Below, piece by piece: positions 3 to 17,068 of a DNA stretch of 20,000 bases. The notes under the pieces were generated by a model, which made no database searches, had not been told where the DNA came from, and saw only the letters and a list, made by a program, of their open reading frames with translations. Origin of the DNA: an uncultured virus (IMG/VR IMGVR_UViG_3300025102_000020) (Duplodnaviria > Heunggongvirae > Uroviricota > Caudoviricetes > Crassvirales); IMG/VR virus record IMGVR_UViG_3300025102_000020; one strand, given 5' to 3'. Every line of letters begins with the position of its first letter. The first letter of the stretch is position 1. Made by a program: the position numbers and the translations under genes.

Positions 3-587
3 TTTGAAGGTTCTCAAAGGTATAGATATAACTATAACAACAAGTTGTCATTTAACGTTGGTGCTGCTCAGCGAATAGCCGAGCCATACGGTTATAATCC
101 GCTAGATCAATGGATACTTGATAACGGTAATATTCATTACACATACTTAGCTTTACAGGAAGGTTATAATGTTGACGTGTATAATTCTATATACACAAAT
201 CCAAACGGAGAGGTTGTTGCCACTTCTTCTGATGTTTGGGAGCAAATAGTTATACCTGAAGTATTGTCTGATTACACTAATAAGAAAAGAAATGAATTAG
301 ATAGAATTTGGAACCATTCTTTAGTTATAGGTTTCGACTACTATCATTATACCAAAAGCTATTGGTTGCATAGTTGGGGTAGTATATTTCCTTATCATTA
401 TAATACTAAAAACGAGTACTCTTACCACAACTACATAGATGGTCAGTGGTATGATTATTCTGGAGGAATAATATTTGGAAAAAAGATTAGTAAGCAATTA
501 GGTGTTTTTGTAGAGGGAAAATATAATAAATACTGGAACAGAGAATGGCACAACTTTAAATTAGGAATTAACTATATAATAAGATAA
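3..587 (+). CDS. 5'-truncated protein with outer-membrane beta-barrel-like C-terminus
   Basis: The frame is open from the window edge (TTT GAA GGT...). It has Tyr/Trp/Gly-rich alternating strands (LGVFVEGKY) and ends FKLGINYIIR, resembling a terminal beta-strand signal. Confidence 0.5.
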   Translation, partial: FEGSQRYRYNYNNKLSFNVGAAQRIAEPYGYNPLDQWILDNGNIHYTYLALQEGYNVDVYNSIYTNPNGEVVATSSDVWEQIVIPEVLSDYTNKKRNELDRIWNHSLVIGFDYYHYTKSYWLHSWGSIFPYHYNTKNEYSYHNYIDGQWYDYSGGIIFGKKISKQLGVFVEGKYNKYWNREWHNFKLGINYIIR

Positions 588-10453: not shown

Positions 10454-11209
10454 TTACACAAAGTCAAGCACTTGCGAGTGATCTACGTTCTCAATTAGCT
10501 TGTCTACAGCTTGTCTTTTTAGCTGTGAAATTCTAACGTAAGAACTACTACCTTCGATGCCTAAATATTCTGCGATTTGTGTAGCGGAATGTTTATCACA
10601 ATCAAGTCCGTAACTTAATCTTAGTACTTGATACTCTCTATCTGACAAGTGAGCTTGACACAAGCCTTTTAAATAGAGGTTTAGTAAATCTATATTATAT
10701 GGTTCAGATGTATCAGGTATTTGATATACCATATCTTCATCATTAGGGTTGGCGTCAATACTTAAGAATACTGAGTTGAAAAACATTTCAACCATCTTTT
10801 TATCTTTGCCAAAGTTTTTACGTATTTCGTTTATCTTATGCTCAGGTAATCTTATACTTCCTCTATTAGAGTCTATTTGTCTACGAATACTACCTTTGAT
10901 TCTTTTTGAAAAGAAAGATTTTAATGTCTTTTCCATATCTTCAGATTCTCCAAGTTTTTCATAATCTAGCTTTTTGACCGCCTGTACTAATCCTAAACTA
11001 CCAGATTGTATCATATCCATAATTGTCATCACTCCACTAGCTTGTTGGGATGTAGCGAACTTTCTAGCTATATTTTCTACTAATGGCAAAAACTTAATTG
11101 TAAGTTCTTCCCTAGTGTATTCATCCCACATTTTACCTTCTAATCTAGCTACAGCTTGCTTGACATCGTTCTTGTATCTTACATAATTCTGTATGTTATA
11201 TTTCTTCAT
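10454..11209 (-). CDS. Phage-encoded sigma-70 family factor
   Basis: Region 2 LPLVENIARKF...DMIQSGSLGLVQAVKK, then IRLPEH, and region 4 LSDREYQVLRLSYGL...IAEYLGI...RISQL. Confidence 0.92.
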   Translation of the reverse strand: MKKYNIQNYVRYKNDVKQAVARLEGKMWDEYTREELTIKFLPLVENIARKFATSQQASGVMTIMDMIQSGSLGLVQAVKKLDYEKLGESEDMEKTLKSFFSKRIKGSIRRQIDSNRGSIRLPEHKINEIRKNFGKDKKMVEMFFNSVFLSIDANPNDEDMVYQIPDTSEPYNIDLLNLYLKGLCQAHLSDREYQVLRLSYGLDCDKHSATQIAEYLGIEGSSSYVRISQLKRQAVDKLIENVDHSQVLDFV

Positions 11210-15054: not shown

Positions 15055-15276
15055 TTATTTATTTCTATATTGATTACTATTTCTTAATGCTTTTTGAGTT
15101 GTAAGATTATCTATCTTATCTTGTACTACTTTAATCATTTGTAACCAGTATTCTCTAGTTATGATAGGTCTTTGGCCCATTAGTTTCGCCTCGTCTTGGC
15201 TCTTGTGCATTTCTGCTACAAAGTTATCGACCATCTCGTCTAATATAACTCTGTCTTGAATGTCAAATTTTTTCAT
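15055..15276 (-). CDS. Hypothetical protein
   Basis: 73-aa ORF with an A-rich leader. Confidence 0.65.
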   Translation of the reverse strand: MKKFDIQDRVILDEMVDNFVAEMHKSQDEAKLMGQRPIITREYWLQMIKVVQDKIDNLTTQKALRNSNQYRNK

Positions 15277-15297
15277 TTATTTAATTTTATTTGTTAG

Positions 15298-15509
15298 TGC
15301 CCAAGGGTGGATTCGAACCACCTATTTTCCTAGTACTACTACCGAGTTTCGGTTATTGAGGTCCACTAAAACGCTTTATCCCTCTACCGAGTTTCGGTTT
15401 GTAGCGACAAGGCTCTATTTTTGTTCAGTACTTACCGAGTCTCATCTCAACAACTCGCCAGCGTACTTCCCACATTACCATAGATTTACTGTTCACCTTG
15501 TACTTGGGC
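15298..15509 (-). ncRNA. tRNA-like structured RNA (acceptor stem + T-arm) with ~180-nt insert
   Basis: 5' GCCCAAG pairs perfectly with 3' CTTGGGC-A; T-arm GGTGG-TTCGAAT-CCACC; GC-richer than flanks; occupies an intergenic gap. Confidence 0.75.
15339..15440 (-). repeat. Hairpin direct repeats AACCGAAACTCGGTAG (2 exact + 1 partial)
   Basis: Identical 16-mers at 15339-15354 and 15384-15399, and a partial ACTCGGTA at 15433-15440. Confidence 0.85.
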
Positions 15510-15524
15510 TGTTATTAAAACACT

Positions 15525-15878
15525 CTATTGAGCGGAATTTTCTTCTGTATCATCTATTATCTTAAACTTATTTTCTATTAAACGTATGATAGGTTCTCTT
15601 ACATAATCACAACTATTAAATTCTATACTATTAGTAGTAATTCTATTATCATAATCTATATCGTATTCAAAGTCATAATTTTCTGTATCATTGAAGTCAA
15701 ACTCTTCTATACCTTCGGTAACACAGTCGTATATAATGTCCAGTGTAGACTGATTTAACTTTGGTTTATTAACATTGTTTAACTCTATAGTTTTAACATT
15801 TAACTCTGTTTGTAACAACTCTAATTTGTCTTGTAAGCCTTTTACTGTAGCTTCTAACAGTTCTTTTGATTCACTCAT
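15525..15878 (-). CDS. Hypothetical acidic protein with N-terminal coiled coil
   Basis: 117-aa ORF. Confidence 0.7.
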   Translation of the reverse strand: MSESKELLEATVKGLQDKLELLQTELNVKTIELNNVNKPKLNQSTLDIIYDCVTEGIEEFDFNDTENYDFEYDIDYDNRITTNSIEFNSCDYVREPIIRLIENKFKIIDDTEENSAQ

Positions 15879-16399: not shown

Positions 16400-17068
16400 T
16401 TATTTTACTTTATATCTATGTCCATCTATTATTATATCTACTGAATTTGGTTTATCTTCTTTCCATTTATTCCAATAAGCGTGTTGCTCGTGAACAAATA
16501 CATCACCATTTTCTAAATTAGTTATTTGACCACCTGAATATTCAAAGTTAATCATGTCGTCAGTATCTTTACATTTAAGAAAATCACCAAGTTCGTATTC
16601 GTATTTAGTTACTTTCTCCATTGTTTCTAAATCATGTTCATACTTCCATTTAGATATATATTTACCGTCTTCAACTTGATTCGCTTGTTTAATATAATAG
16701 TTTTTGAGACAATAGAGTACTAAGTATCTTAATCTAGCTACTTCACCTCGTATAATTATACGTCTTTTACCTTCAAATTTATTGTATTTACCTGTCCAAT
16801 ACTGTTCGTCACGTGTATCACACCACTTGTAGTCTTTGAAATACTCTACACTTGGTTCACACTTATTTAGTTGATAAGGTGTATAACCACCGTTCATTCT
16901 TCTTACATAACCTGACTGAAACGAACCTACCTCTATATACTTACCATACATTTTGATAGGTAATCTATATATTATAGTACCGTTTTTCTGTTGTTTTTTA
17001 GTTGAAATATCTTTCCAACCTAGTAAATCGATAGTATCGATCACTTGTTTTTCACTTTCTAATTTCAT
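16400..17068 (-). CDS. Hypothetical protein
   Basis: 222-aa ORF, no motif recognised. Confidence 0.75.
   Translation of the reverse strand: MKLESEKQVIDTIDLLGWKDISTKKQQKNGTIIYRLPIKMYGKYIEVGSFQSGYVRRMNGGYTPYQLNKCEPSVEYFKDYKWCDTRDEQYWTGKYNKFEGKRRIIIRGEVARLRYLVLYCLKNYYIKQANQVEDGKYISKWKYEHDLETMEKVTKYEYELGDFLKCKDTDDMINFEYSGGQITNLENGDVFVHEQHAYWNKWKEDKPNSVDIIIDGHRYKVK

Follow-up and report, generated by a model that had tools for sequence, protein, structure and literature searches.

The stretch of DNA considered here, which we call the window, comprises 20,000 nucleotides of an uncultured virus (IMG/VR record IMGVR_UViG_3300025102_000020), and its region 15298-15509 contains a group of short repeats within the gene of a tRNA-like RNA. 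The repeats lie in a 248-nt gap between two minus-strand open reading frames (ORFs), 15525-15878 and 15055-15276, and all of the genes that surround the site are likewise on the minus strand. The window as a whole corresponds to the replication and nucleotide-metabolism module of a phage, with ribonucleotide reductase, primase-helicase, thymidylate synthase, ERF, a sigma factor, and DNA ligase. Its primase-helicase has 41.6% identity with the counterpart in Cellulophaga phage phi10:1, the next matches being to Tenacibaculum and Flavobacterium phages, and the DNA of the window is present in marine metagenomes. By megablast, the whole window found no match, and the two flanking ORFs matched no family of Pfam, PHROGs, or PADLOC.

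On the plus strand, the 16-mer CTACCGAGTTTCGGTT occurs in two exact copies, at 15339-15354 and 15384-15399, with a start-to-start distance of 45 nt; its minus-strand reading is AACCGAAACTCGGTAG, or AACCGAAACUCGGUAG as RNA. A third and partial copy, the 11-mer TACCGAGTCTC (plus strand 15433-15443), has 10 of its 11 bases in common with them and lies 48 nt further on. An earlier note on this DNA had reported a 16-mer present twice without change plus a partial third copy, and the coordinates, a mismatch scan, and shuffling bear it out: with up to three mismatches allowed, the 16-mer matches just two sites in the window, 0.06 matches are expected in shuffled windows, and none of 200 shuffles had two or more. 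When the 13-mer ACCGAAACUCGGU is folded alone, it gives a 5-bp hairpin with an AAC triloop (ACCGA-AAC-UCGGU, −3.9 kcal/mol). The exact 16-mer was also searched in IMG/VR, where it had three matches, every one in unrelated coding-like sequence.

The tRNA-like RNA and its family

The repeats are, as the earlier note supposed, inside a tRNA-like RNA, whose 212-nt gene (GCCCAAG...CUUGGGC-A) can be placed on the minus strand of 15298-15509 by its fold and by R1, a covariance model of the family to which it belongs (family A). All the features described below are on this strand. In the fold, an acceptor stem, a long arm 1, an arm 2, and a canonical T arm meet at a four-way junction, with a linker of 12 nt ahead of the T arm; the 7-bp acceptor stem and the T arm enclose about 180 nt. 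The minimum free energy (MFE) is −67 kcal/mol versus −50.6 ± 4.1 kcal/mol in shuffles (z = −4.0), with 0 of 200 shuffles being equally stable. The 5′ strand of the acceptor stem, GCCCAAG (15503-15509), pairs with 15299-15305; the 3′ strand CUUGGGC and the discriminator A occupy 15298-15305, CCA is not encoded, and the next base is C. All seven acceptor pairs have changed on both sides among 29 aligned members, with 100% of the alignment cells paired, and the T arm, GGUGG-UUCGAAU-CCACC (15306-15322), is also 100% paired, three of its five pairs having changed on both sides. The linker that leads from arm 2 to the T arm is ACUAGGAAAAUA (15323-15334), for which the family alignment gives the consensus ..GG(A/U)(A/U)AA(A)U...

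Arm 1 takes the position of the D arm and carries the conserved UAUGGUAAUGUGGGAA ... AACAAAAAUAGAG. Its core motif, UAUGGUAAUGUGGGAA (15467-15482), is present in all 22 unique RNAs recovered by their 5′ end alone, and the conserved A-rich strand followed by the 3′ strands of helices P2 and P1 (AACAAAAAUAGAGCCUUGU, 15407-15425) is nearly invariant, with covariation in P1 and P2. Between them, the MFE structure places a variable tip (15426-15466), one of 21 tip types in 35 relatives, which holds the third, partial copy. Arm 2 (15335-15405) takes the position of the anticodon arm, again with 21 types in 35 relatives, and is laid out as GCUAC-AA-copy 1-29 nt-copy 2-GUAGU. Its base helix GCUAC/GUAGU encloses the two exact copies of AACCGAAACUCGGUAG, copy 1 at 15384-15399 and copy 2 at 15339-15354, which are the 5′ and 3′ halves of what we call the twin cassette, and the 29-nt insert in the cassette loop, AGGGAUAAAGCGUUUUAGUGGACCUCAAU (15355-15383), a GAGG...CCUC hairpin module.

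This architecture bears on the earlier idea of unrelated spacers of about 30 nt, which has to be given up. The first "spacer" (15400-15432) combines the base of arm 2 with the 3′ strand that the conserved core contributes; it belongs to the most conserved part of the family and is fixed, not variable, so that the comparison of orthologous loci for spacer turnover finds it invariant. The second is the structured insert of arm 2, a module that is used again in arm 1 of another locus (L035; loci are cited by such L numbers). In the MFE structure, a CGAGUU/GACUCG hairpin forms at the arm-1 tip and has the third copy, GAGACUCGGUA as RNA, for its 3′ strand; the register of this pairing differs from that of the cassette. 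It may be at most a degenerate relic of the cassette, which we consider because L205 and L222 hold true copies at that place. Two of the copies are closely followed by AGTACT, as had been noticed; one AGUACU is part of a conserved GUAGUACUAGGAAAAUAGG that is found too in the repeat-less members L004 and L123, and the other forms the base of the arm-1 tip, a self-complementary GUAC/GUAC pairing.

Family A has 43 unique members of 125–276 nt, from viral and metagenome contigs. Among 13 loci encoding relatives of the flanking proteins, one (L004) has a homologous RNA at the same place, which shares with the window the 5′ 43 nt, AACAAAAAUAGAG(C/U)CUUGUCGCUA, and the 3′ 45 nt, and differs in sequence at the repeats. 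The 5′ 18-mer used as bait returned 61 viral loci and at least 120 metagenome loci, mostly unrelated coding sequence (114 of the 141 loci examined); the members were cut out by script, which yielded 22 unique RNAs in 141 loci and a further 13 in the other 40, the RNA of L191 being identical to that of the window. With the core 16-mer UAUGGUAAUGUGGGAA as bait, IMG/VR gave 35 loci; in 13 of them there is a tRNA-like RNA with the architecture of the family, four distinct acceptor stems that covary being represented, and the rest are unrelated. Loci of the genome collection with the core 16-mer (at least 120) contained no member according to the script, and R1 found none in the first 100 (L250-L349); they are taken as chance matches.

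The model R1 was built on seven short members and recognizes 29 full-length members with E-values from 1e-10 to 1e-35; in the window it finds a single copy (127.6 bits, E 2.5e-29). In the alignment of these 29 members, 96.6% of the cells are paired versus 82% in column shuffles and 33–44% with slid partners, and 23 of the 30 pairs have changed on both sides, which was reached in 0 of 500 shuffles. Although an alignment fitted to R1 leans towards the modeled structure, we consider the core helices secure because of the slid controls and the four distinct acceptor stems. The lengths of the 43 members fall 14/14/15 on the three residues modulo 3, and therefore the RNA region is not coding. A plus-strand ORF of 101 amino acids (15260-15565) does span the whole RNA, and the opposite strand is stop-free in 20 of the 43 members; this ORF was examined as a gene and rejected because of the even length distribution, it matches nothing in PHROGs or Pfam, and it is taken as a compositional artefact. 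The discriminator is A in 39 members, G in three, and U in one; the base 3′ of it is C in 43 of 43, and none encodes CCA. The invariant C may be a signal for processing or for CCA addition.

Outside these collections, the RNA and a short member (L049) were compared by blastn with 50,697 GenBank phage records and gave just T-arm-sized matches to ordinary tRNAs, and the sole match of R1 in Cellulophaga phi10:1, Tenacibaculum JQ, Flavobacterium elemoC, vB_RanS_PJN03, and T4 was an annotated tRNA-Ala. The family is widespread in marine viral metagenomes. Its shortest members (125–130 nt, acceptor GCGGGUG) are found in viral contigs of 148–207 kb (L026, L031, L049), and the family is therefore not confined to Flavobacteriia-type phages of about 60 kb; the RNAs of L026 and L049 adjoin genes for tRNA-Glu, tRNA-Thr, and tRNA-His. 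We found no description of family A or of the twin cassette in the literature, although an IMG/VR-wide catalogue of 2023, with 8,495 models of RNA candidates (PMC10690425), may contain the family.

The core has a further regularity. UAUGGUAAUGUGGGAA holds two U-N-N-N-A pentamers, UGGUA and UGGGA, whose observed variants (UGGCA, UGAAA, UGGAA, UUGGA) all keep U1 and A5 as in T-loop motifs, and a third element, GG(U/A)(U/A)AA, is found in the linker before the T arm. With the motif definition of PMC4810234, a T-loop-like reading of these pentamers is speculative; the double U-N-N-N-A core might grip the tRNA elbow. As for the surroundings of the RNA, a consensus scan marks a small terminator-like hairpin with a U run (15521-15534) at the end of the upstream ORF, ending 11 nt before the 5′ end of the RNA. 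A protein of the sigma-70 family (10454-11209, minus strand), with weak matches to regions 2 and 4, is encoded in the same early module. Promoter sites were no commoner than in shuffles, in a scan for a promoter type that is the wrong one for Bacteroidota.

Exchangeable arms

The arms of family A are combined freely over a nearly invariant core. Among the 35 unique close relatives that form the clade of the window, 33 combinations of arms are present, made from 21 types of arm-1 tip and 21 types of arm 2; six different tips accompany arm-2 type A10, and four arms accompany tip T11. Modules are also shared between arms and with places outside the RNA. The insert GAGGGAUAAAGCGUUUUAGUGGACCUC of the window resembles GGGGGAUAGAGCGAUUUAGUGGACCUC, the arm-1 tip of L035. 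L145 and L162 have the module GUAAUCGAUUUAAAACUAAUGCGC in arm 1, L116 has it in a hairpin of its own upstream, and L157 has its one-base variant GUAAUCGAUUGAAAACUAAUGCGC in arm 2. In the RNA-library run X22, a 196-nt contig matches 15406-15510 of the window without a difference, so it has the same arm 1, and its arm 2 is replaced by an CCUGAAGAGUCUAAAGAUGGACAGG module. L218 has a shorter version of the arm-1 tip of the window. In L063, L195, and L218, arm 2 is just a hairpin of 3–5 bp with a 3-nt loop; an arm that can shrink so far is therefore not an anticodon arm, and the RNA cannot decode.

Other structured elements accompany these RNAs. A series of hairpins with the conserved base AUAUACGAGG ... 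CCUCGUUUUAUA and variable tips lies directly upstream of the RNA in L116, L131, L137, and L193, downstream of it in L017, L025, and L035, and is also present in L236-L246. Modules of the family A arms reappear in its tips, among them the twin cassette in L244, and these hairpins may, as part of the same non-coding island, be terminators or small RNAs that undergo processing. A second tRNA-like family is found directly upstream of family A in L043 (about 395-470), L123, L145, L162, and L181, with the pattern UAACUAG-GUAUGG...variable insert...CUGACGAGUA-UGAGG-UUCGAUU-CCUCA-CUAGUUA-C; ARAGORN makes no call on it, and R1 gives weak matches only (for example L145 424-514, E 0.007). Finally, a tRNA-like element of about 72 nt abuts the 5′ end of family A in L004 (2363-2434), L126, and L158 (GGUAG...AGAGG-UUCGAUU-CCUCU-CCUACCA), with a short acceptor stem and, again, no ARAGORN call.

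The twin cassette and its possible roles

In its compact form, the twin cassette is a 27-nt unit, ACCGAAACUCGG-N3-ACCGAAACUCGG; of the 16-mer of the window, 12–13 nt are common to the relatives. Arm 2 of L184 reads ACCGAAACUCGG-CUC-ACCGAAACUCGGUAG, with the copies 3 nt apart, and L158 has the same with one loop change; the cassette loop is CUCA in both and the 29-nt hairpin module in the window. In arm 1, L222 has two copies separated by 25 nt and L205 one copy. The start-to-start distance is 45 nt in the window, 15 nt in L184 and L158, 38 nt in L222, and 37 nt in L242, and it varies because it is set by whatever sits in the cassette loop. The distances of 45 and 48 nt given in the earlier note are right as measurements, and they do not amount to a period.

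The ACCGAAACUCGG-N3-ACCGAAACUCGG pattern is found at 14 IMG/VR loci, 13 of them distinct. A chance duplication, which the earlier note had named as what would undo its proposal, can be rejected: at least 13 further distinct phage loci, and three additional structural contexts, contain the twin without a letter changed. Its flanks pair in all 13 distinct loci (6–17 pairs), and therefore the cassette caps a helix. Among the helices that it caps are those of hairpins with a U run behind them (L239, L244, L247), of a GGCAGG...CCUGCC element that recurs, and of the RNA of L242; family A is absent from all four cassette-bearing records tested. Exactly one twin is present in five of five cassette-bearing viral records, with no stray copies. 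It always lies in the same early-gene neighborhood, near homologues of the window ORFs 15525-15878 and 16400-17068. The twin is absent from the complete relatives G006 and G010, and arm 2 of G007 has just a pair that has diverged. When nine genomes and the window were compared all against all, no ORF was found to track the cassette.

The L242 element deserves a description of its own. It is a 96-nt RNA (369-467, minus strand) with the acceptor GGGCGCG/CGCGUCC, including G3:U70, and a T arm, and its body is just the twin cassette with a 25-nt insert. It gives a partial match to the Rfam model of transfer-messenger RNA (tmRNA), with 33.4 bits for a gathering score of 47, and, judged by its sequence, it looks like the tRNA-like domain (TLD) of a tmRNA without the mRNA part.

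Two predicted structures compete for the cassette. In one, copy 1 pairs with copy 2 as a rod, ACCGA/UCGGU, an AAC x AAC internal loop, and UCGGU/ACCGA; in the other, each copy closes a local hairpin. For arm 2 of the window the rod has −20.4 kcal/mol versus −17.8 kcal/mol for the twin hairpins, with pair probabilities of 0.80–0.98 for the rod and 0.014–0.018 for the local hairpins, and the rod is the MFE structure in every twin context that was folded. The homologous arm of L025, ACCG-CAAC-CCGG-CCCA-CCGG-AAAU-CGGU, folds as a rod and, by eye, cannot form two local hairpins, and the inner helix, also compared by eye, is compensatory between members (UCGG/CCGA, CCGG/CCGG, GGUU/AACC). From thermodynamics and these few relatives, we infer that the cassette halves most likely pair with each other as a rod that extends arm 2. 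The two true copies being predicted to pair mutually, with their spacing set by a loop insert and the first spacer fixed, the reading of the locus as a repeat-spacer array falls.

We think it probable that the mini-array represents variable peripheral parts of a tRNA-like phage RNA that does not decode, with a twin cassette in its swappable arm 2. The cassette and other hairpin modules would be swapped by recombination between the arms and other structured RNAs, in a hypervariable non-coding island among the early genes of marine Flavobacteriia-type phages, and in this phage the apical cassette loop, CUCA in relatives, would have been replaced by the 29-nt hairpin module. The RNA would be cut out by tRNA-processing enzymes and be stable, and its arms would serve as peripheral display or stabilizing elements on a tRNA-mimic scaffold, with the possibility that the modules are specific decoys or docking sites.

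Several points weigh against this account. R1 leans heavily on one clade and gives rough E-values, and the members outside the GCCCAAG clade were found by the core bait, so that the invariance of the core across clades is partly ascertainment. In RNA libraries from three studies, some contigs match the RNA, or close relatives of it, in part: in X22 one contig of 196 nt is approximately coextensive with the RNA, in X23 there are two short contigs, and in X19 two lie over the T arm; the flanking genes are uncovered in X22 and X23, and X21 covers the downstream gene only, stretches that lack coverage being uninformative. Being contigs, these data cannot show the ends of the RNA, and DNA may be present, so that we regard them as a weak hint of expression. 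The rod itself rests on nearest-neighbor energies and a handful of relatives, and there is no real covariation inside the cassette because it is almost invariant. Pairing alone would not need an identical AAC on both strands, and a passive strut accounts for the exact conservation of both AACs and of the 12-mers no better than a protein or RNA that reads the sequence specifically. The single copy of L205 stands alone as a local hairpin. Finally, the direct repeats that bear inserts run 3–4 nt beyond the palindrome (UAG in the window, UAAC in L242), and such an extended direct repeat looks like the footprint of a duplication and not like a structural need. The identical AACs, the 12-mers kept to the letter, and the lone copy of L205 are the reasons for which we keep a sequence-specific reader as a live rival.

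In that rival explanation, the unit consists of two adjacent CCGA-AAC-UCGG hairpins, each bound by one subunit of a dimeric RNA-binding protein of phage or host, and the tRNA-like RNA, the terminators, and the tmRNA-like RNA are stable carriers of one such site, a sponge or a tag, per genome. We judge it unlikely, although a real contender. The 12-mers and both AACs are letter-perfect in at least 13 distinct contexts while the 3 nt that connect them vary (CUC, CUU, CAC), the cassette tolerates inserts of 25–33 nt, and it is always on the transcribed strand of a syntenic early-gene region; to this are added the single twin per genome in the five records and the hairpin of L205. These points have to be set against local hairpins that are 2.6–3.1 kcal/mol less favorable, with about 2% pair probability, and against the arm of L025 that cannot form them. 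No ORF is specific to the cassette-bearing genomes among the nine genomes and the window, and therefore any partner would be a core phage or host protein. The cassette is missing from complete relatives such as G006 and G010, so it is dispensable. The protein-binding hairpins of the earlier note thus survive in part: a reused RNA module on a tRNA-like scaffold is there, a role in binding a protein or as a sponge keeps some probability, and separate hairpins are disfavored.

A broader version of the probable account, which we offer as a doubtful and tentative extension, is that of a hypervariable RNA display island of marine Flavobacteriia phages, in which invariant nuclease-proof scaffolds carry interchangeable cassettes, the twin CCGA-AAC-UCGG unit being one, each a specific decoy or docking site for some factor of host or phage, and the swapping of arms is the trace of an arms race. 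The scaffolds would be this tRNA-like RNA, the TLD-only tmRNA mimic, and the terminator hairpins. If this were true, the island would be an RNA-level analogue of the shuffling of anti-defence genes, with 33 combinations in 35 sequences.

It is rather improbable, in our opinion, that the cassette is a selfish or neutral palindromic mini-element, lodged in hairpin loops by recombination or template switching, which would be without any function and persist because an insertion at a helix tip does no harm. Palindromes of the repetitive extragenic palindrome (REP) or miniature inverted-repeat transposable element (MITE) type offer themselves for comparison. The cassette always sits at the tips of unrelated hairpins, its distribution among close relatives is sporadic, the insert-bearing versions have extended direct repeats that resemble a duplication footprint, and many other modules behave alike. 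However, unlike multi-copy mobile palindromes, it is present once per genome (5/5), with none scattered in genomes of 59–79 kb; it is confined to one syntenic non-coding island and does not decay in sequence across contexts, and Pfam and PHROGs show no transposase-like gene in the window.

A site that acts at the level of DNA, with the dyad-symmetric CCGAnnnTCGG 11-mers as operators or iterons of a dimeric protein that binds DNA, or as a single-strand initiation or origin hairpin of the replication module, and with an incidental RNA context, appears very unlikely to us. The units are palindromic as DNA, each genome has a single site, and it lies among early and replication genes (ribonucleotide reductase, primase-helicase, ERF, ligase); yet the site is always inside elements whose flanks pair as RNA or single strands, in the window it is inside an RNA gene with strong RNA-level covariation, the spacing of the units ranges between 15 and 45 bp, a poor fit to cooperative binding of DNA, and its absence from complete relatives means that it is not an essential origin.

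There is hardly any likelihood left for a processed repeat-spacer array, be it CRISPR-like (short palindromic repeats, clustered and regularly interspaced), an RNA anti-CRISPR, a ToxI-like antitoxin, or a tRNA-capped guide-RNA precursor, in spite of hairpin-capable direct repeats inside a probably stable RNA and of a copy number and intervening sequence that differ between relatives, as there are just two true repeats of 12–16 nt each, one spacer is the invariant core, and the searches described in the next section gave nothing in its favor.

Comparison with known systems

A CRISPR array has several direct repeats of about 23–47 nt at a fixed period, with unique spacers of uniform length that turn over between strains, and an RNA anti-CRISPR is a solitary repeat unit that resembles the host's own CRISPR repeat. 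The locus shares with both the presence of short hairpin-capable direct repeats on a phage genome, and differs from CRISPR arrays in having two repeats of 12–16 nt at a spacing that is not fixed and no cas gene found. ToxI-type antitoxins are head-to-tail tandem repeats beside the gene of a ToxN/AbiQ-type endoribonuclease; the likeness here is a repeated RNA unit that could bind a protein, and the differences are the lack of head-to-tail repeats of about 36 nt, of an adjacent ToxN/AbiQ-like gene, and of an Rfam match. The comparison of the repeats with CRISPR and type III antitoxin repeats, which the earlier note had proposed, finds no Rfam family that matches them: the lone CRISPR-DR match in the window is DR44 at 15620-15649, outside the RNA and with an E-value of 1.9, and there is none in the cassette loci. 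The statement of that note that the window has no cas or effector gene remains valid, with no Cas, ToxN-like, or other defence protein found in the scans with Pfam (19 ORFs), PADLOC (27), and PHROGs (19).

On the host side, the twin pattern was found in one of 401 sampled genomes from the class of a Flavobacteriaceae metagenome-assembled genome, the likely host class, as an unrelated two-unit tandem, in a search that did not cover single repeats in host arrays; the other 400 have no twin or array. A tandem CCGAAACTCGG-AAC-CCGAAACTCGG in a Bacteroidia-class genome (L403, G313:C1:2923657-2923681) is intergenic, amid other short tandem repeats; the flanking helix is absent from it, and it is probably unrelated. 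The antisense 11-mer matches of the variable parts within the window, three versus 2.8 in shuffles, are at chance level. No sign was found that the RNA is processed to guide-like products of about 45 nt, the RNA-library data being contigs, in which RNA ends do not show. The repeat-spacer array reading is largely refuted.

Among tRNAs proper, the RNA has the 7-bp acceptor stem and the 5-bp T stem with a UUCGAAU-type loop of a decoding tRNA, both 100% paired. It has neither a decoding anticodon arm with a 7-nt loop nor a normal D arm, arm 2 being 71 nt long in the window. ARAGORN predicts no tRNA or tmRNA gene in the window and none that overlaps the RNA in 28 plus 13 loci, and Rfam, including RF00005, gives no hit at gathering scores and nothing relevant at E ≤ 10. 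G3:U70 is lacking, the third pair being C-G in 23 and G-C in six of the 29 members, and C3-G70 in the window. As in the tRNA-like domain of tmRNA (RF00023), an acceptor stem and a T arm close a large body that is not that of a tRNA; in tmRNA, however, one P2 helix encloses everything, whereas the RNA of the window has two arms that close separately and no conserved frame. The RF00023 model has no match to the RNA at E ≤ 10. A tmRNA-like frame in arm 1 or arm 2 was considered and rejected: the frames are not conserved, there is an early UGA in L063 (by eye), and the arm lengths are not multiples of three.

No Rfam covariance match was obtained to Y RNA-like (YrlA), skipping-rope, or other Rfam tRNA mimics, and the 19 ORFs scanned contain no TROVE/Ro domain. 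At least some of the skipping-rope, DUF2693-FD, and salivarius-1 families are Rfam families, and Rfam gave no match here. In a 2026 preprint, these three are presented as bacterial tRNA-mimic families. With its two U-N-N-N-A pentamers, the core resembles the T-loop modules that interdigitate in T-box stem I, RNase P, and the 23S L1 stalk, a likeness in sequence pattern only; the pentamers of family A are 3 nt apart on one strand, and we mention these modules as a speculative lead and not as a claim of membership.

The nearest precedent for the tRNA-capped precursor of the earlier note is murine gammaherpesvirus 68, in which a viral tRNA-like element is joined to extra hairpins. In that virus, the hairpins lie downstream of the tRNA-like part and are reportedly released as microRNAs. 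It is a eukaryotic virus, whereas here the hairpins are inside the tRNA-like fold, between the paired acceptor strands. The tRNA-linked small RNAs of this virus are treated in PMC4337559.

The closest likeness in kind is to RNAC and RNAD of phage T4 (stable RNA species 1 and 2), which are small non-coding phage RNAs of about 120–140 nt, with a 3′ tRNA-like T arm and a closing stem, and do not decode. Both are annotated in the T4 tRNA cluster, a setting shared by some members of family A (L026, L049), and the closing stem of RNAC is imperfect (5/7 pairs by eye). The core motif, the four-way junction, and the combinatorial exchange of arms have no described counterpart in T4. R1, run on the tRNA/rnaC/rnaD region and on the whole T4 record, matches neither rnaC nor rnaD at E ≤ 1, and we therefore claim resemblance in kind and not membership. 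For phage RNAs of this type, PMC3014915 and PMC9697503 report the roles as unknown.

The general kind, phage small RNAs that are tRNA-like and non-decoding, is old, and family A with its cassette is an addition to it: a tRNA-like family with a sharply conserved core and arms that recombine like cassettes, and a 27-nt twin unit that recurs with its exact sequence on RNA scaffolds of quite different kinds. For experimental work it provides a minimal member of 125 nt, a defined cassette, and natural domain swaps. It also advises caution in annotation, as regular-looking short repeats in a structured RNA can be the two strands of one helix with an insert between them.

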